Notes under the pieces: generated by a model | What the model was told of the DNA's origin: nothing | What the model saw: only the letters and a program-made list of their open reading frames with translations | Databases searched by the model: none | Translations under genes and position numbers: made by a program | DNA from: a virus | Taxonomy: Duplodnaviria > Caudoviricetes | Virus record (IMG/VR): IMGVR_UViG_3300033121_001334 | Coordinates: 1-64,000 of that record | DNA length: 64,000 nt | Reading direction: 5' to 3' (one strand) | Shown here: positions 4,731 to 26,706 of the stretch, piece by piece | How positions within the stretch are numbered: position 1 is the stretch's first letter | Layout of the letters: each line of letters starts with the position of its first letter

Positions 4731-4803
4731 TGCCCCCTGCTGGATTCGAACCAGCGGCCACTCGCTTAAAAGGCGAATGCTCTAACCACTGAGCTAAGAG
4801 GGC
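4731..4803 (-). tRNA. tRNA-Lys(TTT)
   Basis: GCCCTCTTAGCTCAGTGGTTAGAGCATTCGCCTTTTAAGCGAGTGGCCGCTGGTTCGAATCCAGCAGGGGGCA; cloverleaf, no encoded CCA. Confidence 0.92.
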
Positions 4804-7016: not shown

Positions 7017-7586
7017 TTAGGCGTTCTTCTTCGACTGGATCGCCGCCGCCTGAGCGAGAATCTCAGCCTCGCGCTGCTCGCGGAGAGCGTCGCGATGAGT
7101 CGTCAGGAAGTTGATGCAGTAGTTGAGGAAGTCGCCAGCCGTCTTGTCGCCAGCGGCCTCGCGCTTGGCGAGAATGTCGCCGATCAGCGTGACCATGTTG
7201 GCCGCGCCGTTGTTGGGAAGGCGAGTCGCAGGGCCGCTGTGGATGAAGCCGTCCGAGTTCCAATGCTGATCATAGCCCTTGCGGGGCGGATGAGCCTCGC
7301 ACTGCTCGTAGAACTCCTTGAGATACTGACGACCGCTATTGGCGTTGCTGGGGTCGATGCGGGTCTGCGTGGCGTTCTTCTTGATCCGCTTCGTCGCCTG
7401 AACCTCGATCGCTGCGACCGCAACCGCATGCGCCTCCGCAGCCTCGCCCTTCGGCTCGACCTCGACAGGAGCCGCAGCCTCCTTCGGAGCCTTCTTCTCA
7501 GCCTTCTTGGTCGCCTTCTTGTCCGCCGTCTTCGTTCCGCTCATTGCTGTTTCTCCGTTACTAAAACTTGGGTTGCTACTTCGCAA
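7017..7586 (-). CDS. hypothetical protein, Lys/Ala-rich N terminus
   Basis: 189 aa; terminator-like hairpin at about 6960-6995. Confidence 0.7.
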   Translation of the reverse strand: MRSSNPSFSNGETAMSGTKTADKKATKKAEKKAPKEAAAPVEVEPKGEAAEAHAVAVAAIEVQATKRIKKNATQTRIDPSNANSGRQYLKEFYEQCEAHPPRKGYDQHWNSDGFIHSGPATRLPNNGAANMVTLIGDILAKREAAGDKTAGDFLNYCINFLTTHRDALREQREAEILAQAAAIQSKKNA

Positions 7587-8775: not shown

Positions 8776-8845
8776 AAACCCTTGGTAGGATTCGAACCTA
8801 CTGGACTCCGTATGAAACCGGAGCGCTCACCAGAGCAGCAAGGTT
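8776..8845 (-). pseudogene. atypical tRNA-like element (8-nt anticodon loop GTTTCATA)
   Basis: Good T arm GTAGG-TTCGAAT-CCTAC, stem CTCCG/CGGAG, 4-nt D loop, imperfect acceptor. Confidence 0.6.
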
Positions 8846-8919
8846 TAACCTTTTCCCAGGATGATCAGTCCCAGTACGCAAGGTTGGCCGTTATATTATA
8901 GAGGAGGCCAAACCTCTAA

Positions 8920-13351: not shown

Positions 13352-13384
13352 GCTTTTCTTTTTCCGCGAAAGTTTAGTTCCGAA

Positions 13385-15429: not shown

Positions 15430-15729
15430 TTAGTTCTGACCTTCCGGCTGAACTTCTTCAGTTTTCATTTCTTTCTGCTTCTTGATCTCTTCAGATCTTT
15501 CCTTGAACCATCGGCCAATATGGCCCTGCATTGCGTAAATGTGACCCTCGTTCTCGCTAAGTTCGCTTTCCTTGATGAACCTGGTAAGCTCAAGAGCAAG
15601 AGCCTTATTCAGGGTAATAGTGATGTTACCCTTCATATGCTCAGGGTTTGCTGCGTCAAAAGGCTGAAGAATGAACACAGGCTTCTGAAGCGGACGACGA
15701 TTTCTGACAGTTTTGGGGGAGTCGGACAT
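15430..15729 (-). CDS. hypothetical protein (start MSDSP)
   Basis: 99 aa; stop is the TAA of a motif copy. Confidence 0.65.
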   Translation of the reverse strand: MSDSPKTVRNRRPLQKPVFILQPFDAANPEHMKGNITITLNKALALELTRFIKESELSENEGHIYAMQGHIGRWFKERSEEIKKQKEMKTEEVQPEGQN

Positions 15730-15803
15730 GGATTTGCTCCAAGTGGTAAAAGTAAACACTCAAAAGATACATCGTACCTTTCTGCTTTCCACAATCAAGT
15801 CAA

Positions 15804-15875
15804 CGCGCCGTGGGAGGTTCGAACTCGCTTTTCCCGATTTGGAGGCGGGCGTCTTACCAATAGACGAATCGGCGC
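15804..15875 (-). tRNA. tRNA-Trp(CCA)-like, degenerate
   Basis: CCCGC-CTCCAAA-TCGGG; mismatches in the anticodon, T and acceptor stems. Confidence 0.55.
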
Positions 15876-15973
15876 AGTGTTACAAGCTATTCTGTTGTCA
15901 AAGAAAAAACCCCTCAAGTTTTTAGAAGGGATTTTTCCAAAAGCTTTGAAATAACTGATAAAGGAGTTCAGTT

Positions 15974-16432
15974 ATGTCAAAGTATCAGGAAATGACCCCA
16001 GAAGAAATCGAAGAATACAGAAGAAAACGTAGAGAATATTACCAGAATCTAACAAAAGAAGAAAAAGAAAGAAGAAGAATACAAAGAAGAGAAAGACGTA
16101 GAAAAAATGGAAAACCAGAAAAAGAATTAGAAGCTAATAGAAAATGGGCTGCCAAAAACAATATCAAGATTCAAAAGCAAGCTCAAGATTTGAAACAAAA
16201 ATGTGTAGAACTAAAAGGTGGAAAGTGTTTTGCTTGCAATAATTCTTTCCCGTCTTGTGTTTTTGATTTTCACCATAGAGATGTTAATCAAAAAGAAGAA
16301 CAATTATCGGTTTTGATCTACAAAGCTCACGGAGAAATGACTCAAGAACTATTATCTGAACTTCATAAATGTGATCTCCTTTGCTCAAACTGTCATAGAA
16401 TACATCACCATGTGAAACAAAAAACCCCTTGA
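15974..16432 (+). CDS. HNH endonuclease (antisense to tRNA array)
   Basis: GGKCFACNN...FDFHHRD...KCDLLCSNCHRIHH; AAGGAG SD. Confidence 0.88.
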   Translation: MSKYQEMTPEEIEEYRRKRREYYQNLTKEEKERRRIQRRERRRKNGKPEKELEANRKWAAKNNIKIQKQAQDLKQKCVELKGGKCFACNNSFPSCVFDFHHRDVNQKEEQLSVLIYKAHGEMTQELLSELHKCDLLCSNCHRIHHHVKQKTP

Positions 16433-16499
16433 ATAAACTCAAGGGGTTCCGCAGACCTGTGGACATACAGCAAGTAGTCAACAGTCGCTACCCCTTGAG
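16415..16499 (-). promoter_or_regulatory. attenuator: antiterminator 16490-16499/16438-16447 versus terminator 16438-16447/16424-16432 + U tract
   Basis: CTCAAGGGGT pairs with ACCCCTTGAG (10 bp); ACCCCTTGA-GTTTAT-TCAAGGGGT-TTTTT. Confidence 0.8.
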
Positions 16500-16543
16500 G
16501 TAATGACATGCCAAATCACCTGATGTACAACTATGCTGTTCAT
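16478..16543 (-). CDS. attenuator leader peptide MNSIVVHQVIWHVITSRGSDC
   Basis: 21 codons, GGAG SD; codons 4-14 are Ile x3, Val x4, His x2, Trp, Gln. Confidence 0.75.
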   Translation of the reverse strand: MNSIVVHQVIWHVITSRGSDC

Positions 16544-16576
16544 TTCAAAAATCTCCGCCCAACATTGGGCTACCCA

Positions 16577-16605
16577 ACTGTATCGGCTTTTTCCGCAAAA
16601 GTCAA
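16577..16605 (-). promoter_or_regulatory. sigma70-type promoter TTGACT-N17-TACAGT
   Basis: -35 at 16600-16605, -10 at 16577-16582. Confidence 0.7.
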
Positions 16606-16743
16606 CAATCTTTTCACGCTTTCTCTAGTTTCCTAAAATCCTTCATTTTCCGCTTACGGAAACTAGGCCATTTTGGGAAACTGCTAAATGCGATTAAGAC
16701 CCCGATTCTCACCCATAACGATTATGCTTCACAAATTCCTTCT

Positions 16744-17142
16744 TTATTGCGAAACTTTTCCGTAAATTTCTGCGCTTTCAATCGTGCCTGTTGGAATAGT
16801 AATCAAAGATCTAAAACTGGGCTCTTTGTTTCCAGCTTCAAACATTGAGTCAACTCCAATAGTAACAAATTCTTTTTTTTCGCCTATAAAAGCAACAAAA
16901 CCGGAAGTGCAAACCTTGCTTGGCCCGTCAGGAACTTCGCCAGGCTTGAGTACAGAATCCGGATCGAATACTGCGCCCTTCCAAATAACCTGAACTATAT
17001 TCCCAATTTCAGCCTTGGCAAAAAACTCTTCAGAGTTCATAAACTTCTCCTTTACTATCATGTCTATCGACAAGAGAGTATTACAAGGAGAAAATCCAGA
17101 ATCCTCTTCAGTTCTGACTATTGAATTTACGAATCGCGCCAA
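16744..17142 (-). CDS. hypothetical protein (start probably further downstream)
   Basis: ORF track; Sm/SH3-like beta-rich segment. Confidence 0.55.
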   Translation of the reverse strand: MARFVNSIVRTEEDSGFSPCNTLLSIDMIVKEKFMNSEEFFAKAEIGNIVQVIWKGAVFDPDSVLKPGEVPDGPSKVCTSGFVAFIGEKKEFVTIGVDSMFEAGNKEPSFRSLITIPTGTIESAEIYGKVSQ

Positions 17143-17524
17143 TCAGTGTAGCGACTTCGATTTTCCAAAGCTCAGGAAACCTGACATTCTCTGGCATCCA
17201 AACATCAAAATGAACGTCCAGAATAGACTTGATATTTGCTCTACCAGCAGGATTCAAGCTATGAACAACAACAATCTTACCATGATGCTGCGTCATGTCT
17301 TTCAAGTGACGAGCAACAAAACGACCGTCCTCATGATCGTCTTTGGTAACATGATAATGCTCTTCTTCGAGATCGTGATCCAAATAGATCACATCATACT
17401 CGTTCTTTTTCAACAAGTCGATTGCTTCTTGCGCAGTGATAGCAAAGTCAACAACGCAGCCAATAGCTTTCTGTTGAAAGACATCTCGCCTGCTCTTCAT
17501 GTCGTCAAGGAACAAGATCCTCAT
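17108..17524 (-). CDS. cyclic-phosphate-processing receiver-domain protein
   Basis: MRILFLDD...EAIDLL...DVIYLDHDL...VVVHSLNPAG pattern. Confidence 0.7.
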   Translation of the reverse strand: MRILFLDDMKSRRDVFQQKAIGCVVDFAITAQEAIDLLKKNEYDVIYLDHDLEEEHYHVTKDDHEDGRFVARHLKDMTQHHGKIVVVHSLNPAGRANIKSILDVHFDVWMPENVRFPELWKIEVATLIGAIRKFNSQN

Positions 17525-17528
17525 TGAA

Positions 17529-17617
17529 TGCGGCAGGCGGGCGATAAACCCGCTTGCCCCTTTAGATTGCGTTTTCAAAATGCAACCAGCGCCTACCAAA
17601 CGTACAGGGCCTGCCGC
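17529..17617 (-). pseudogene. tRNA-like cloverleaf (Ser TGA-like, non-canonical T loop)
   Basis: 7-bp acceptor GCGGCAG/CTGCCGC + A; T-like arm GCGGG-TTTATCG-CCCGC; loop TTTGAAA. Confidence 0.5.
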
Positions 17618-17665
17618 ACTTCATTATCGACCAACGCCGCCCTGCCTCTCTGCTGTTCAGAAAGT

Positions 17666-18859
17666 TTAGTTCTCCTCGTCGCCGCCCTCGTCGTCGTCGT
17701 TGCGGCGACCTTCGCTGGTCAGCGACCAGCCGCCATTGTCGTCTCGGTCAGCCAGGCCTTGAGCCTTGTAGTTCGACAGGTTCTTGCTCAGCTTCTCGCG
17801 AGTAAGCTCAGGGAATTCGACAAGAAGCCTGTCGTAGATACCGCCAAGGTCCAGCCGAGAATGAGTTGTGAGAATGTCTTTGACGCTGGGAAACAGTCTC
17901 AGCCTCTTGCCTCTTTGGGGCTTGGTCTGCTTTGCGGTCTTGATAGAGGGATGTCCTCCAAGCTCGGCAACTCGTTGGTCGAGGGCTGCGAACTTCTGAA
18001 AAGCAAGTTCAACGGCGATTTGCGCTGCCTTGGCCGCTTTCTTTGCAAGACCATACTCGGCAACGGCCTTCATCCGCTCTTCTTCAGCGAGCTTGAGAGA
18101 GGCGCTGTCTTTGCCCAAAAGAACGTCAAGGTCGATGAGGTCGTCGTCGTCAAGGTCGATTGGAAACGAAGGCTGCGGCTTCGCAACCGCAAGAATGGAA
18201 GCGGGAATGGCCGGCGCAGTGGGGCGAGAAGGTTGAGCGACGGTTGGAGGTGTCGGCGGAGGTGTCTGCGGCTTGAATGGCAAGGCTTCGGGGGTAGAAG
18301 GAGCCGTCAGAACCTCAAGGAGAGCGTCATGGGCTTCCCCAATAGGCAAGAGCTTGGCGTCGTCTTGCATGGGAACCTTGTTGATTTTCCCAATCGCTCT
18401 CATGCCGTCGCCGTGGTCCCTCCACTTGTTGGCGAGATTGAAGTTCTGCGTCCAACGCCTTTCTTGCCCGGCCCAAACGGCTTTCATCTTCGCGCTGAAG
18501 ATGACAAACTCGCCAGAGGGAGCGCCAGTCGGGACAATGCTCGTTGGGATAGACAGTCTCTCTCCGAGCGGCTTCCGAAAATCAACAGCAGACGGCATAT
18601 TCATTACCTCCGTGATGTCAAAGTCGCAACCGCTCTTCCAAAGATAGATATTGGAGAGCTTTTCTTCTTCGTCATGTCCGTGCTTGAAGGGCCGAACGAT
18701 GGCCCTTCCATTGCCCAAGACCTTCTTGAGAATGCCCCTATTGGGCTTCCCCCTTATGTCTTTGTTGATGAGCTTGATATTGCAGATTCGCCCGCTCTGT
18801 TGAGCAAGCTCAAGGAGCTTGAGGGCTTGAGCTTCTGAAATTCCTTGACGGCTTTCCAT
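17666..18859 (-). CDS. hypothetical protein, Pro-rich linker, coiled coil and C-terminal winged helix
   Basis: 397 aa; LDLGGIYDRL...LSKNLSNYKAQGLADRDDNGGWSLT. Confidence 0.7.
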   Translation of the reverse strand: MESRQGISEAQALKLLELAQQSGRICNIKLINKDIRGKPNRGILKKVLGNGRAIVRPFKHGHDEEEKLSNIYLWKSGCDFDITEVMNMPSAVDFRKPLGERLSIPTSIVPTGAPSGEFVIFSAKMKAVWAGQERRWTQNFNLANKWRDHGDGMRAIGKINKVPMQDDAKLLPIGEAHDALLEVLTAPSTPEALPFKPQTPPPTPPTVAQPSRPTAPAIPASILAVAKPQPSFPIDLDDDDLIDLDVLLGKDSASLKLAEEERMKAVAEYGLAKKAAKAAQIAVELAFQKFAALDQRVAELGGHPSIKTAKQTKPQRGKRLRLFPSVKDILTTHSRLDLGGIYDRLLVEFPELTREKLSKNLSNYKAQGLADRDDNGGWSLTSEGRRNDDDEGGDEEN

Positions 18860-18912
18860 AGTCTAGAAGTCTAGGCCGAAAGTTTAGTCTTGGGCTTTCT
18901 CCGAGTGCAAAA

Positions 18913-18963
18913 TGGCCCCGATGGGATTCGAACCCCTACGCCTTTTTACGGGCTACGGATTTT
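18913..18963 (-). pseudogene. 3' half of split tRNA-Leu
   Basis: AAAATCCGTAGCCCGTAAAAAGGCGTAGGGGTTCGAATCCCATCGGGGCCA; long variable arm; pairs with GGCCCTG at 20026-20032. Confidence 0.82.
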
Positions 18964-19423
18964 TCACATTTCTTCCTCTCCAAGTTGGAGTCAATGCGTG
19001 GCAGTTGCAACACAAAAGTTCTAGATTTTCTTTTCGGTTATCAGTTCTATCACCATTTTTGTGTTCAATTTCTAAAGGAGCGATCTCTCCTTGCCATTCT
19101 GTTATTTTACACTTTTCACATTGATGACCTCGTTCCGAAATCAAATGTGGTTTTAAAGAAGAAAGCTTATTGTATTCTGACCAGTCTTTTAATCTTTTCC
19201 CAACGTTCCAAGCACTACCAGTCCAATGAGAACAATCCAGATTTAGCCTCTGGAGTGTTTTTCTCATATTGTTGTAGTTGCCACCTGCAACTCTGAGATC
19301 AAGGGCCTTCAAAAGCTCTGCCATCGAGTTGACTTCTTTACACTTTTGAATAATTTGTTCATCGGTGTAGCTTCTGTATTTTCTTGCCATAATCCACCTC
19401 CATAGATGGATTACAATTGGCAA
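18953..19423 (-). CDS. HNH endonuclease
   Basis: CEKC...LEIEHKNGDRTDNRKENLELLCCNCH; ORF ends in the tRNA 3' half. Confidence 0.9.
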   Translation of the reverse strand: MPIVIHLWRWIMARKYRSYTDEQIIQKCKEVNSMAELLKALDLRVAGGNYNNMRKTLQRLNLDCSHWTGSAWNVGKRLKDWSEYNKLSSLKPHLISERGHQCEKCKITEWQGEIAPLEIEHKNGDRTDNRKENLELLCCNCHALTPTWRGRNVKNP

Positions 19424-19456
19424 TCGAATTATCCTTCTTCGTCTACCAATTCCTAA

Positions 19457-19775
19457 TGGACTGACCGGGACTTGAACCCGGATGGTGTTTGAATACCTGC
19501 GGATTTTCTTACCACTTCAGCTTTCGCCGACTGCCCTTTTCCATCAAGGTACTTGGGGTCTTACGTTTGTGGTCTGGACTGTACCTTCATCCGTTCTGCT
19601 TCTTACGAAGAGTTTTGGATGACCCAATTGCAGTCTCTACGGCTTCCTTTGTAGGTTTGCCTCGGAATTGGGATTTTACACCGTTTCCCGATACTCTGGG
19701 TTTCATTTACAAGATTACTCTTGTAACGCTCAAATTGTCTAAGTCCGCTGCGTCTGCCAATTTCGCCATCAGTCC
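19457..19775 (-). tRNA. tRNA-Leu(TAA) with group I intron
   Basis: Exons 19741-19775 and 19457-19507 join to GCGGA-CT-TAA-AA-TCCGC. Confidence 0.9.
19508..19740 (-). mobile_element. group I intron (233 nt, no ORF) between anticodon positions 34 and 35
   Basis: 5' AGACAATTTGAGC recalls the cyanobacterial/plastid trnL intron; R CCGTAGAGACTG; S AAGGTACAGTCC; terminal G. Confidence 0.9.
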
Positions 19776-19782
19776 AATTATT

Positions 19783-19983
19783 CTATTCTTTGCGCGAATA
19801 ATTTTGCACAGACAATTTATCTATTTGTTCTTGTTGAGATTTAATAATACTTAAGATTTTCAAAAAATCTCCAGCCATAACAAAAAAAGTATTATCTCCC
19901 TTAATAGGAAATTTTCCTCCTTTACCAGCTTTATCCATTCTTTCTTTAACGTTTTGAATAAGTTCCTCAATCTCGTTCTTCAT
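19783..19983 (-). CDS. hypothetical protein (cassette cargo)
   Basis: 66 aa, GAAAGGA SD. Confidence 0.65.
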   Translation of the reverse strand: MKNEIEELIQNVKERMDKAGKGGKFPIKGDNTFFVMAGDFLKILSIIKSQQEQIDKLSVQNYSRKE

Positions 19984-19993
19984 ATTTGTCCTT

Positions 19994-20389
19994 TCAAAAA
20001 GTCCGATGCGTCTGCCGTTCCGCCACAGGGCCGATAATCTGAGAAACAGTCATTTTGCGAACAGGTAAAATGTTGTGGTCCAAGAAGTGATTGAGGCAAT
20101 CTTCCACTTCGTCCAAGAAGCTATCGCAGGCGGCAATTCTGTTAGAGGGAAGATCTTCTCTCATTTCAAGAATCGTTCTGTAAATCGAAATCAAGTCAAT
20201 AACTTTGCATTCGATTTTAGATTCTCGCGCAAAAGTAAAAGCGTCCGAAATGAGATCCAAATCGGGCTTTCTTGCGGATTTCAATGATTGAAATGCAGAA
20301 AGAGCTTTTTCTTTGCGAAGCTCGTTCTGGTTTGGAGAGTGAATATCTACTTTAATAGAACGAAAATCAAGAGTATCAAGCATCGTCAT
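19994..20389 (-). CDS. hypothetical protein reading through the tRNA-Leu 5' half
   Basis: 131 aa; C terminus GPVAERQTHRTF is encoded by the tRNA remnant. Confidence 0.6.
   Translation of the reverse strand: MTMLDTLDFRSIKVDIHSPNQNELRKEKALSAFQSLKSARKPDLDLISDAFTFARESKIECKVIDLISIYRTILEMREDLPSNRIAACDSFLDEVEDCLNHFLDHNILPVRKMTVSQIIGPVAERQTHRTF
19999..20032 (-). pseudogene. 5' half of split tRNA-Leu
   Basis: GGCCCTGTGGCGGAACGGCAGACGCATCGGACTT. Confidence 0.82.
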
Positions 20390-20391
20390 AA

Positions 20392-20465
20392 TAGCTCCAG
20401 AGAGATTCGAACTCTCAACCTTACCGCCTTAAACGGTTTGCCTCTGCCGATTGAGCTATGGAGCC
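20392..20465 (-). tRNA. tRNA-Leu(TAA), short variable loop
   Basis: AACCG-TTTAAGG-CGGTA; 74 nt. Confidence 0.82.
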
Positions 20466-20481
20466 AAAGTTTAGTTCTAAA

Positions 20482-20555
20482 TGCTCTTGAGTGGATTCGA
20501 ACCACTAACAACTAGATTCTGAGTCTAGCGCCTCTGCCGGTTGGGCTACAAGAGC
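20482..20555 (-). tRNA. tRNA-Leu(CAG), short variable loop
   Basis: CTAGA-CTCAGAA-TCTAG; 74 nt. Confidence 0.88.
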
Positions 20556-20568
20556 GAATTTTACTAAA

Positions 20569-20642
20569 TGCCCAGGACTGGATTCGAACCAGCACTGTAT
20601 TGATTTTGAGTCAATCGCCTCCTGCCGTTGGGCTACCTGGGC
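20569..20642 (-). tRNA. tRNA-Leu(CAA), short variable loop
   Basis: ATTGA-CTCAAAA-TCAAT; 74 nt. Confidence 0.88.
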
Positions 20643-20663
20643 TTTATTGAAGTATTTCCATAA

Positions 20664-20746
20664 TGCCCCTGAGAGGATTCGAACCTCCACGTCCTTTCGG
20701 ACACGAGATCCTAAGTCTCGTGCATCTGCCGTTTCGCCACAGGGGC
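20664..20746 (-). tRNA. tRNA-Leu(TAG)
   Basis: CGAGA-CTTAGGA-TCTCG; long variable arm GTCC-GAAA-GGAC. Confidence 0.93.
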
Positions 20747-20987
20747 CTATTTTATTTAGGCCATTTTACACGGACTTGTAAAATTCCAGACAGCTTTGAT
20801 GTCTTCTTCAATCGGAAACTCATGCGATCTATTTCCGTCAACAATAACCTCTTTTACTGATTCAGTAACGCAAATTGCAGAAACTAATTTTTGAAGCTCG
20901 CTCAGAACATCGACCTGAAAATTGTAAGTGTCCTCAGTGGTTATAACAACGATTCTTTTTGTACTCATTATGATCCTTTCTTTTAAA

Positions 20988-21071
20988 TGGCCTTGACAGG
21001 ACTCGAACCTGCACTCTCTTGCGAGAACCACCACCTCAAGGTGGCGCGTCTGCCAATTCCGCCACAAGGCC
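20988..21071 (-). tRNA. tRNA-Leu(GAG)
   Basis: CCACC-TTGAGGT-GGTGG; long variable arm CTC-GCAA-GAG. Confidence 0.93.
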
Positions 21072-21080
21072 TTATGTACC

Positions 21081-21145
21081 AAAAGAAAAACCCCATCTTT
21101 TTAGGGATGGGGTTCGTGTGCATCTACGCAACGACTTCCATCCCT
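21081..21145 (-). promoter_or_regulatory. attenuator: antiterminator 21138-21145/21103-21110 versus terminator 21106-21112/21091-21097 + U tract
   Basis: AGGGATGG pairs with CCATCCCT; CCCCATC-CCTAAAAA-GATGGGG-TTTTTCTTTT. Confidence 0.82.
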
Positions 21146-21196
21146 TTATTCAAGGAGTAGGAGGCCGCATAACAAGCTGTTGAAGTTAGTATTCAT
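21146..21196 (-). CDS. leucine attenuator leader peptide MNTNFNSLLCGLLLLE
   Basis: 16 codons with 6 Leu (TTG TTA CTC CTA CTC CTT); probably a leaderless mRNA. Confidence 0.8.
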   Translation of the reverse strand: MNTNFNSLLCGLLLLE

Positions 21197-21202
21197 GGTT
21201 GA

Positions 21203-21230
21203 ACTATATACCTTTTCGGCTAGAAGTCAA
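21203..21230 (-). promoter_or_regulatory. sigma70-type promoter TTGACT-N16-TATAGT
   Basis: -35 at 21225-21230, -10 at 21203-21208, 6 nt before the leader ATG. Confidence 0.7.
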
Positions 21231-21372
21231 AAAATCCTTCAACGAACACGAAAGAATTTTGTGAGTTTTCACCGATTGAGCTTTTTTGGTTTCCGGAAAA
21301 TTACAAGGAATCTCAATCCCGCAATAAGGACAAAATATCTGTCCAAGCGTTTTTTCTCCGCAAACAAGACAA

Positions 21373-22032
21373 TCACTTGATCTTGTAATAGCGGATCGCT
21401 TCTTCCAAATCCAACGCCTCAAGCTCGCCCAGAGAAATAAAAACACAACCCCGCTGCTTATAGATAAGAGGATTATGCCAGTGTCCATGTACGAGTATCC
21501 TAGGCATATGAGCATGAATCATCGAATCAAGCAAGAAAGCTGTGGAGTTACCCTTTGGTTCGCCCCAGCCCTCATTGTTGCGGTCATAAGTACAAGAAGC
21601 AGCCTTGGCAATCTGATGAAGCCTAAACGGAGCTTCATGACAAATCAGAATATCAGGCTTGTTGTTGATGTAGTCATCAAGAGCAAGCTCCATAGCCTCC
21701 CGATTAAGTTGCTCGTCAGGCCACCAATCAACTCCCTCTTTTCTCCACTTCTTATCAACAGAATCAGCGCCAGCAACAATGTACAGCCCATTCCACATGC
21801 CATACTCAACGGCATACTGCGGATGCGCTCTGCAAATGGCTGGATTGTCATGATTTCCGCGAAAGAAACGAAAGTTCGCAGGCAGCTTTGGTTCTCGACC
21901 AGGAAAGCCAATACCAACGTCGCCAAGACCAAGAACAGTCTTGTTCGCGTACTTATCGCAGACGTTCTTGAGCATGGACCATTTCCCATGAACGTCGCCA
22001 ACAATCACAATATCATTCAGGCTTGGATTCAT
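21373..22032 (-). CDS. calcineurin-like metallophosphoesterase
   Basis: GDVHG, GDVG, GNHD, HGHWH motifs. Confidence 0.9.
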   Translation of the reverse strand: MNPSLNDIVIVGDVHGKWSMLKNVCDKYANKTVLGLGDVGIGFPGREPKLPANFRFFRGNHDNPAICRAHPQYAVEYGMWNGLYIVAGADSVDKKWRKEGVDWWPDEQLNREAMELALDDYINNKPDILICHEAPFRLHQIAKAASCTYDRNNEGWGEPKGNSTAFLLDSMIHAHMPRILVHGHWHNPLIYKQRGCVFISLGELEALDLEEAIRYYKIK

Positions 22033-22462
22033 CTCTCAAAACTTTCTGGAACTGATACAGCGCCGCTCCTTCTAAACACTGCTTTGCAAGACCAAACAAA
22101 ACGCTCAATCTGTCAAGCGTTAGTCCGGCTCTCTTTGCAATACCGCCCAGAAGAAGCTCTCGCTGTTTTTCGTCCAAAAGCTGAGAGGTGGTGTCAATCG
22201 CCACCAAAATGCGCAAGAATCCAACAAGCTCGTCTTCTTCCAACGGAGGGTCAATCTCTTCGTCATTGCCCAAAAAATCGGTCAGCTTCACAAGCTCGCA
22301 ATCCTGATAAGGGTTTGCGATGTAGTTAGCGACCTCTTCCGTGAAAGAAGTATCAACGCCAATGAAGCCGCCGTCCACCTTATGAATATCAAGATGAATA
22401 ACCTGACCCGGATTATCAGGGTCAGCTACCTCGATAGTCTTGATGTACTGGCTAATCTTCAT
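22013..22462 (-). CDS. hypothetical protein
   Basis: 149 aa, overlapping start/stop with neighbours. Confidence 0.7.
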   Translation of the reverse strand: MKISQYIKTIEVADPDNPGQVIHLDIHKVDGGFIGVDTSFTEEVANYIANPYQDCELVKLTDFLGNDEEIDPPLEEDELVGFLRILVAIDTTSQLLDEKQRELLLGGIAKRAGLTLDRLSVLFGLAKQCLEGAALYQFQKVLRDESKPE

Positions 22463-22914
22463 GATTCGTCTTCTGTTCCGCCGTCGCCAAAGATTCGCTC
22501 TCGAACCCTGTCATGGATAGCATAGTCAACCTCAAAGAAGGCGTCAACTTGCCGTCCCATTTCAAGAGCTTTTTCGATTTCATTTGCGCCGCTATTGGAA
22601 AGCACAATCTTCTTGCCGGTAATCCTTTCAAGGGAAGCGATAACCCGCTTCATACCTTCGACAGGATCAACATTGGCAATCGTCCTGAACGACGGAGCCA
22701 GGTCCGCAAATGATGTTGCGTAAACTTGATTGAACGCAAGGTTTTCTCGGTATTCCGTCAGCGCCCAAGAGTTCGGCGTTGCGGAAACACCATAACGATA
22801 GCTCAAGGTCTCGCCCTTGCTGCGAGGCCCTTCAGACTTGCGAGTTTTCCAGTCGTCCGAAAGGTGACAAAGCACCTTTTCGTTCTCGGCTTGCTTCGGT
22901 AAATCAACTTTCAT
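22459..22914 (-). CDS. hypothetical protein
   Basis: 151 aa, motif upstream. Confidence 0.7.
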   Translation of the reverse strand: MKVDLPKQAENEKVLCHLSDDWKTRKSEGPRSKGETLSYRYGVSATPNSWALTEYRENLAFNQVYATSFADLAPSFRTIANVDPVEGMKRVIASLERITGKKIVLSNSGANEIEKALEMGRQVDAFFEVDYAIHDRVRERIFGDGGTEDES

Positions 22915-22975
22915 ATGCTACATATAGTAGCAGAAAGTTTAGTCTTGGCAAACCAAACTGTGGTTTCTCAAAGAA

Positions 22976-23542
22976 CTAGACACACTCCAACGACGAGAGT
23001 TTCTCGTTCATGTCTACCTGAACGCCTCTGTCTTCAAGAAACTGAACAAGGTCGTATAACTCTTTGTACGAGTCATGACCTAAAGATTCATTCATAAATA
23101 AAAGACCAGACCAAACAGCTTTGCCGCTACGAGGAACCTTGATCTCTTTTCCGTCGAGACAGATAGTTGACGGATAAGTTGTGAAGCCAAAGTACACAAA
23201 AGCGCCGTTGCTAAGTTCAACCGCAAATACAGCAATACTTTGCGGATTCACAATCACAATCTTGTCATTGTGAAGCATAATCCCTTGAGACAAAAGCTTT
23301 GCGTCAAGCAAGGGATCTTCTGAACCCTCAACCAGGCACTCTTCTCCATAAAAGCGATGAATGGGGCCTACCCTAATCGCCTTATCCTGTGCTTGTTGTC
23401 GCAGGGCAACAAGATGAGCATACATCTCCTTCTTGTCGCAAACAAGCTCAAAATGAAGAGCGCCAGAATCAGTCTGATGATTCTTGAGTCGCTCGGTTTC
23501 CATAAACAATTCCCCTGAACGAACTGGACTGATTGTTGTCAT
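22976..23542 (-). CDS. hypothetical protein
   Basis: 188 aa ORF. Confidence 0.7.
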   Translation of the reverse strand: MTTISPVRSGELFMETERLKNHQTDSGALHFELVCDKKEMYAHLVALRQQAQDKAIRVGPIHRFYGEECLVEGSEDPLLDAKLLSQGIMLHNDKIVIVNPQSIAVFAVELSNGAFVYFGFTTYPSTICLDGKEIKVPRSGKAVWSGLLFMNESLGHDSYKELYDLVQFLEDRGVQVDMNEKLSSLECV

Positions 23543-26205: not shown

Positions 26206-26706
26206 TTACTCGCCCTCGACGACGATTGCGTCCTCGGGGTTGGCGAGGTAGGCGTCCATGCCGCTGCCAGCCTGGTACTGGCCGCGATCAACCCGGACGC
26301 AGACGGGCGACTTGCCCATGCGGAGGTTCGCCAGCTTGCTGAGGGACTGAGCGACCATCGTGGGGTAGTTTTCCGCGGTCGTGTTGTAGCCGTTCTTCTT
26401 GACCTTCTCGCAGATCTGCGTGGTCGTCTGCGCCCGCTTCGCAGTCAACGACTGAGCAACCGCCGTGATGAGCGAAACCTCGTTGGAAGCGCGAGACTTG
26501 CGACCGCCCTTGCGGACGGTGCCGCCCAAGCTCTTGATCTGCGCCTGGACCGTCGCCCGCTCGGCGTCGATCTCGGCAAGACGAGCCTTCGCCGAAGCGA
26601 GGCCAGCCGACCGCGCCGTCTCCAGAGCAGCCTGAGCCGCCGCCATCTGCGCCTCCGCATCCGCCAAAGAAACCGTCGAACCGTTCTGAGTGCCCTTCGT
26701 CGCCAT
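26206..26706 (-). CDS. coiled-coil + winged-helix putative nucleoid-associated protein
   Basis: RKSRASNEVSL...VKKNGYNTTAENYPTMVAQSL...RVDRGQY; GC-rich codon usage; terminator at about 26145-26180. Confidence 0.7.
   Translation of the reverse strand: MATKGTQNGSTVSLADAEAQMAAAQAALETARSAGLASAKARLAEIDAERATVQAQIKSLGGTVRKGGRKSRASNEVSLITAVAQSLTAKRAQTTTQICEKVKKNGYNTTAENYPTMVAQSLSKLANLRMGKSPVCVRVDRGQYQAGSGMDAYLANPEDAIVVEGE

Follow-up and report, generated by a model that had tools for sequence, protein, structure and literature searches.

The 64-kb window analysed here (the whole stretch of DNA under study, positions 1-64,000 of an IMG/VR virus record of 74.5 kb) contains, directly ahead of a minus-strand cluster of tRNA-Leu genes, a promoter, a short leucine-rich ORF, three overlapping RNA helices and an intrinsic terminator. 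Together these most probably constitute a ribosome-mediated (leader-peptide) transcription attenuator that gates the phage tRNA-Leu cluster; from the sequence and the modelled folds, we put the probability of this assignment at about 0.8. The sequence parts themselves, their conservation and covariation, and their behaviour on folding are observed.

Results

Setting of the element

Since CheckV rates the 74.5-kb record as only about 15% complete, the window is a fragment of a very large phage. Nearly all of its genes, and 13/13 of its tRNA genes, lie on the minus strand. Near-identical sequences come mostly from wastewater metagenome runs, and four wastewater metatranscriptome runs hold the stretch as assembled contigs, with even coverage across 15500-23500.

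Compared with the related contigs L002 and L003, the window has a 134-nt insertion (21263-21398), encoding a CxxC...CxxC zinc ribbon, between a phosphatase gene and the putative attenuator promoter. The insertion creates a 103-aa ORF (21515-21204, minus strand), which overlaps the 3' end of the phosphatase gene and has its stop codon within the -10 box; some wastewater variants are without the insertion (joint 21263 to 21398). Elsewhere in the window, ARAGORN reports a tRNA with a four-base anticodon (ttca) at 8776-8846, adjoining a tRNA-Met, which could be a frameshift/stop suppressor or a miscall.

Architecture of the leader and terminator

The initial annotation had described a promoter with an ATG 6 nt after the -10 box, a leader using five different Leu codons, a segment directly following the stop that can pair with a second segment overlapping the 5' arm of a GC hairpin, a U tract ending 10 nt before tRNA-Leu(GAG), and a further segment able to pair with the first of these. 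All of these parts were recovered (Table 1; promoter to ATG, 21230-21194), with RNAfold agreeing on the last of the pairings.

The promoter (-35 box at 21230-21225, -10 box at 21208-21203) is the best site in the 2.4 kb scanned. The box containing TTTCGTG just upstream, possibly an UP element or a regulator site, is kept in the related contig L025 despite a different upstream gene there. The leader ATG (21196-21194) lies exactly 6 nt past the -10 box and no Shine-Dalgarno sequence was seen ahead of it. Given a standard start site, the A of the ATG (21196) would therefore be the first base of the transcript, i.e. the transcript is probably leaderless. Codons 8, 9, 12, 13, 14 and 15 of the leader specify Leu and read, in order, TTG, TTA, CTC, CTA, CTC and CTT, so that the leader uses every Leu codon except CTG, five different ones in all. 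Against the six-frame background composition, P = 0.004 for this Leu content (6/15 codons, including four in succession).

The core of segment 2, AGGGATGG, is a perfect 8-nt complement of segment 3, CCATCCCT, which itself has 5 nt in common with the 5' arm of the terminator hairpin; a complement of this kind overlapping the terminator arm arose in 25 of 5000 shuffles of the upstream sequence (0.005), and the whole leader folds better than its shuffles (z = -2.6). The hairpin is followed by TTTTTCTTTT, and the T tract ends 10 nt ahead of tRNA-Leu(GAG), which starts at 21071. No promoter fits between the T tract and the tRNA, so tRNA-Leu(GAG) is transcribable only through the terminator. Within 19000-23000, only tRNAs pass in Rfam, and neither the Leu_leader nor the T-box model gives a match at E values up to 10. 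Weak Rfam matches on 21082-21166 (NsiR1, E = 0.42; a toxic sRNA, E = 3.4) were rejected, since they fall well short of the threshold and seem to reflect a generic resemblance to terminators.

Table 1. Features of the tRNA-Leu element, of its sister in the window and of related units in other phages
Genome	Feature	Coordinates	Strand	Description
Window	Upstream box	21235..21260	-	Contains TTTCGTG; near-identical in L002, L003 and L025
Window	Sigma-70-type promoter	21203..21230	-	TTGACT-16-TATAGT (16-nt spacer); 10/12 consensus matches; conserved in L002, L003 and L025
Window	Leader ORF	21146..21196	-	16 codons + TAA (21148-21146); reads MNTNFNSLLCGLLLLE
Window	Segment 1	21152..21168	-	Inside the Leu codon run; pairs with segment 2 (-14.4 kcal/mol; RNAfold)
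Window	Segment 2	21131..21145	-	Core AGGGATGG (21145-21138) starts on the base right after the stop codon
Window	Segment 3	21103..21110	-	CCATCCCT; pairs with segment 2 (antiterminator hairpin, -20.9 kcal/mol) or joins the terminator
Window	Intrinsic terminator	21081..21115	-	10-bp hairpin 21115-21088 (-14.9 kcal/mol) + T tract 21090-21081
Window	Putatively controlled cluster	20391..21071	-	tRNA-Leu GAG, 70-aa ORF (20968-20756), tRNA-Leu TAG, CAA, CAG, TAA
Window	Sixth tRNA-Leu(TAA)	19456..19776	-	233-nt intron; ARAGORN with introns allowed
Window	Sister attenuator (putative)	16415..16605	-	Promoter, SD, leader, 10-bp antiterminator, terminator
Window	TCTTTGACA box	15895-15904
L003	TCTTTGACA box	7407-7416
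L059	TCTTTGACA box	4794-4803
LR756501 (735 kb)	TCTTTGACA box	upstream of 367322
LR756501	Unit 1			Leader with all six Leu codons; five tRNA-Leu genes follow
LR756501	Unit 2			Core TPAPAVAFRRGTGTGTGT; Arg, Thr, Val, Ala, Gly, Pro tRNAs follow
LR756501	Unit 3			Core SKHSKHFSSSSKWF; Trp, His, Phe, Lys, Ser tRNAs follow
LR756501	Unit 4			Core IINMIQEQMQQIQ; Met, Gln, Ile, Glu tRNAs follow
LR756501	Unit 5			Core KYNDYCIND; Ile, Cys, Asp, Asn, Tyr tRNAs follow
LR756511 (595 kb)	Unit			Leader with eight Ser (all six Ser codons), five Leu, two Tyr; Ser, Leu, Tyr tRNAs follow
Caulobacter phage CcrSC	Unit 1			Leader core RQFVRQIQFVRVNR; Val, Ile, Val, Gln, Asn, Arg, Phe tRNAs follow
Caulobacter phage CcrSC	Unit 2			Annotated hypothetical gp144 (39 aa), rich in T, L, P, A, K, S, H, W; Pro, Thr, Lys, Leu, His, Ala, Ser, Trp tRNAs follow

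The cluster behind the terminator contains five ordinary tRNA-Leu genes according to ARAGORN; a search for relatives of the 70-aa ORF among them gave no match. The six Leu tRNAs of the initial annotation are made up by an intron-containing sixth, tRNA-Leu(TAA), but its membership in the transcription unit is uncertain, because it lies 615 nt past the fifth, behind a 131-aa ORF. Three of the five ordinary genes (20391-20466, 20482-20555 and 20569-20642) are only 74-76 nt long and are without the long variable arm typical of bacterial tRNA-Leu, and relatives carry short and long tRNA-Leu forms for the same anticodon.

The motif ACTAAACTT has 41 copies in the window, where 0.8 are expected, with 39 of them on the minus (coding) strand. 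Copies lie mostly between genes and after tRNA clusters, e.g. at 20467-20475, 22935-22943 and 13370-13378, and the motif is present in the 494-kb relative as well; it may be a phage-specific promoter or an RNA processing signal. As one copy (20475-20467) is inside the cluster, immediately ahead of the last tRNA-Leu, expression of that gene may in part escape the attenuator.

Conserved pairing in divergent relatives

The neighbouring metallophosphatase gene served as an anchor for finding relatives (up to 505 kb) in which the gene order is retained. In L002, a 57-kb contig with an identical leader peptide and one synonymous change, the promoter, leader, switch and Leu cluster are present together as a unit, as they are in L003 (a 494-kb contig), L004 (370 kb) and the metagenome copies L130 and L131, in which the adjoining phosphatase gene is 77% identical. 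In L025 the upstream box, the promoter and the first 11 codons are the same, the upstream gene is different and the contig ends at that point.

The L003 version has a TTGACA promoter with a TAGAGT -10 box and an ATG 7 nt further on. Its leader, MKNASLLSLSLLLLS, has 15 codons and is in the same place, with a stop codon that overlaps segment 2 and with seven Leu in 14 codons (P = 0.0005); ORF length, frame and Leu run are thus kept despite heavy sequence change. Covariation in relatives, which the initial annotation had named as a check, was found in helix 2:3, which reads AGGGAUGG:CCAUCCCU in the window and GAGGGGCAG:CUGCUCCUC in L003. When the two versions of segment 2 are lined up on the conserved AAGTC 3' of it, three homologous 2:3 pairs have changed on both sides in L003 (A-U to G-C, U-A to C-G and G-C to A-U). 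Segment 2 (GAGGGGCAG) and segment 3 (CTGCTCCTC) of L003 form nine pairs, one of them G-U, and the 3' arm of the terminator changes in step, from GATGGGGTTT in the window to GAGAAGTAGGGT in L003. The 1:2 pairing is kept with a different sequence. The energies in L003 (2:3, -25.3; 3:4, -14.9; 1:2, -13.1 kcal/mol) follow the same order as those of the window (Table 1), i.e. 2:3 is stronger than both 3:4 and 1:2.

The helix pairs were checked by script, because the MAFFT alignment misaligned the helices. The covariation of the Leu element rests on one comparison, because the collections searched hold only two divergent versions of it: DNA patterns for the promoter and the sister leader matched only the same four viral contigs, and a single metagenome scan gave only copies identical to L003 and one 57% relative with no tRNA downstream.

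Predicted effect of ribosome position

Folding was repeated with a ribosome placed codon by codon; the leader was masked as far as 13 nt past the first base of the codon in the A site (an assumed footprint). For a ribosome at codons 2-7, the model favours the terminator together with helix 1:2. When one of codons 8-14 (UUG, UUA, UGC, GGC, CUC, CUA, CUC) occupies the A site, the 2:3 antiterminator is predicted and no terminator forms in the model. From codon 15 to the stop, the ribosome covers segment 2 and the terminator is predicted to return. The predicted read-through range, i.e. codons 8-14, contains five of the six Leu codons. The 1:2 / 2:3 / 3:4 logic put forward in the initial annotation is thus borne out as a real layout, conserved with compensatory changes and giving the expected switch in the model.

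In a co-transcriptional variant, in which the transcript is folded before the 3' arm of the terminator emerges, the boundary is predicted at the end of the regulatory run in 11/11 elements. By contrast, equilibrium folds with the full terminator give the terminator wherever the ribosome sits in most sister elements, and apart from one codon in the Leu element of LR756501; the model therefore needs kinetic control.

Matched leaders at other tRNA clusters

Thirteen further leader/antiterminator/terminator units were identified: one in the window, two in the 494-kb relative, and ten spread over two huge phages from GenBank and two phages in culture, such that the design, with matched leaders, is present in six phage genomes. 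This recurrence, with leader residues that match the downstream tRNAs, supports the suggestion of the initial annotation that a general phage tRNA-supply sensor may be involved.

In the window, the sister leader (16543-16478; Ile/Val/His/Trp) has the core IVVHQVIWHVI, and is followed by tRNAs for Trp, Val, His, Ile and Val. A plus-strand ORF of 152 aa (15974-16432) has been inserted between this attenuator and tRNA-Trp (region 15895-16432); since a second terminator-like hairpin (about 15934-15907) follows the insertion, part of the terminator may have been duplicated by it.

The 494-kb relative has a homologue of the Ile/Val/His/Trp element, in which a one-base helix indel is compensated. Its other unit (G002, 137897-138090) has a 39-codon leader, residues 4-28 of which draw on 14 amino-acid types; over the following 30 kb there are 45 tRNA genes, of exactly the same 14 types, and the types absent from the run (Leu, Ile, Val, His, Trp and Glu) are served by other clusters. 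Just past the terminator of this leader there is a strong TTGACG-17-TATAAT promoter, and then a tRNA-Phe split by an HNH-type insertion.

Amino acids of the leader's own tRNA set are enriched in 11/11 leaders tested (binomial, P from 0.05 to 2e-6), with every tRNA type of the set covered in nine of the 11. Of the 120 ways of assigning the five LR756501 leaders to their clusters, the true one ranks first. In three Leu elements, those of the window, L003 and LR756501, segment 2 either adjoins the stop codon or shares bases with it.

Brevundimonas phage Kabachok (L210, ON529852.1) has two units homologous to those of CcrSC, and its 44-aa annotated CDS KABACHOK_04190, like CcrSC_gp144 (39 aa), is assigned here as a leader peptide; the two CcrSC leaders are at 80739-80858 and about 88164-88262 of the phage record. 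Residues T, K and R occur in the Kabachok leaders, although the annotation there lists no tRNA for Thr, Lys or Arg. Genes for the tRNAs so predicted, i.e. Thr(cgt), Lys(ctt), Lys(ttt), Arg(cct) and Arg(ccg), were then found at about 19507-19799 and 26279-26474, by Rfam (three matches above the gathering score) and relaxed ARAGORN; a predicted tRNA-Phe was not found. The leaders have thus helped to locate tRNA genes missed by annotation.

Some candidates were left out of the count: a similar promoter and a short ORF, but no T tract, accompany the Glu cluster in the 494-kb relative, position 277849 of LR756511 is a weak match only, and ORFs ahead of the Glu-Asp tRNAs in CcrSC and Kabachok were likewise excluded. 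As a separate observation, four phage genomes have a box, TCTTTGACA (three of the four read TTCTTTGACA), some 20-25 nt ahead of the first tRNA past a terminator; its spacing is unfit for a normal -35/-10 promoter.

Discussion

The transcription start, the translation of the leader, the regulated termination and its physiological trigger are deduced from these features, and the following mechanism is proposed on that basis. Transcription by a host-type RNA polymerase would begin on the A of the ATG (21196) or on an adjacent base, and a ribosome would translate the 16-codon leader; efficient leaderless translation is an assumption. When Leu codons are read fast, the ribosome would reach the stop and cover segment 2, allowing the 3:4 hairpin to form, so that transcription would end at the T tract, 10 nt ahead of the first tRNA, with an expected terminated RNA of about 110 nt. 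When no ribosome is present, segment 1 would hold segment 2, likewise leading to termination. By contrast, stalling at Leu codon 8, 9, 12, 13 or 14 would leave segment 2 free to form the stronger 2:3 hairpin, such that the terminator would not form and polymerase would read through into the tRNA-Leu genes. The new tRNA-Leu would restore decoding and shut the gate again, i.e. would exert negative feedback on tRNA supply.

The physiological signal may be tRNA supply or amino-acid supply; more tRNA would not relieve stalling that results from leucine starvation. It may be that the switch is real but senses leucine (charged-tRNA) starvation, or a general slowdown of translation, rather than the amount of tRNA, in which case the phage would simply make more tRNA in a starved host or under the excessive translational load of late infection. 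The geometry would be the same whether the A site is empty through lack of tRNA or lack of charging, and classical attenuator leaders respond to starvation (PMC1183508). However, many synonymous codons map onto downstream isoacceptors (five Leu codons in the window, six Leu codons in LR756501 and six Ser codons in LR756511), and leader content tracks the tRNA gene content and not any biosynthetic pathway, making this alternative rather unlikely.

That the terminator/antiterminator choice is set without translation, by a protein or by direct binding of tRNA, with the short ORF left untranslated, would fit with the lack of a Shine-Dalgarno sequence ahead of the ATG. Such a switch is nevertheless very unlikely, given that ORF length, frame and Leu run persist through the heavy sequence change in L003, that the position of the stop codon relative to segment 2 recurs in three Leu elements, that Rfam gives no T-box match at E up to 10, and that the amino-acid content of 14 leaders matches the downstream tRNAs, which is sensible only in the reading frame. 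The view that the terminator is an ordinary one belonging to the upstream gene and simply precedes a tRNA cluster, with the ORF and the complementary 8-mer present by chance, is scarcely credible: terminator-like hairpins are common (510 in four genomes) and Leu is the commonest residue in random frames, but the lack of room for a promoter between T tract and tRNA means that the tRNA is read through the terminator, the figures for Leu content (0.004) and for the complement (0.005) are low, three pairs have changed in a compensatory manner in L003, and the design recurs with matched leaders in six genomes.

Taking the element as a ribosome-mediated attenuator, a broader proposal can be made, which we offer tentatively as plausible but short of probable: that in tRNA-rich phages, from the 300-kb Caulobacter phages to 735-kb megaphages, codon-matched leader attenuators together make up a network for tRNA homeostasis that spans the genome and resolves individual isoacceptors, with each block of tRNA genes being on only when its own codons are decoded slowly. 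A leader written in the codons of the tRNAs behind it would, if so, give direct feedback on decoding capacity. Such a network could enable a phage to detect and repair the loss of specific host tRNAs, e.g. by host shut-off or anticodon nuclease cleavage, and its leaders would be readable as a barcode predicting tRNA gene content. It would also explain the grouping of tRNA genes by amino acid in large phages, how the timing of tRNA synthesis is decided, and the presence of dozens of small 'hypothetical proteins', including CcrSC_gp144, ahead of tRNA clusters. The idea is directly testable, because cultured Caulobacter and Brevundimonas phages carry the same design.

Full-text searches, the huge-phage paper, a genome-wide attenuator survey and a phiCbK look-up gave no description of attenuators ahead of tRNA genes; as far as we found, tRNA genes are described in the literature as controlled at their promoters (by growth rate and the stringent response) and not as attenuated.

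Relation to known regulatory systems

The proposed mechanism is that of the trpL/leuL-type attenuators. The leader of the enterobacterial leu operon, leuL, comprises a short ORF in which Leu codons follow one another towards the end, helices 1:2, 2:3 and 3:4, and an intrinsic terminator ahead of the first regulated gene, with ribosome stalling favouring the antiterminator. The phage Leu element is similar in having an ORF with a Leu run, three overlapping helices and a terminator before the first gene. It is, however, without sequence or covariance-model similarity to leuL (no Rfam match), and so is an analogue rather than a homologue. It also differs in being phage-borne, in apparently regulating tRNA-Leu genes, where leuL regulates leuABCD, in its probably leaderless transcript, and in its use of five different Leu codons, which match five isoacceptor genes.

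Sensing of several amino acids by one leader is known from the ilvGMEDA (Ile, Val, Leu) and thr (Thr, Ile) operons, and the phage sister elements, e.g. that with the Ile/Val/His/Trp leader, are multivalent in a similar manner. In the phage leaders, by contrast, the mix of residues (up to 14 types) mirrors the identities of the downstream tRNAs, not a shared biosynthetic pathway. T-box riboswitches bind uncharged tRNA directly, via a specifier codon and the T-box sequence, and do not need a ribosome. The phage element resembles them in that a choice between terminator and antiterminator would report the state of a specific tRNA, but it is without T-box motifs or an Rfam match.

In Deinococcus deserti, leaderless leader peptides have been predicted ahead of genes for tRNA synthetases and of amino-acid genes (PMC4007540), and mycobacteria have polycysteine short ORFs that are leaderless (10.1101/834739). 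The phage Leu element is like such ORFs in having its start codon (probably) at the 5' end of the transcript, in being rich in the cognate residue and in that some of the targets belong to the translation apparatus. The targets named in these accounts are, however, protein genes on bacterial chromosomes and none is a tRNA gene, unlike those of the phage element, which appears to place the tRNA genes themselves under the control of a leader written in their own codons.
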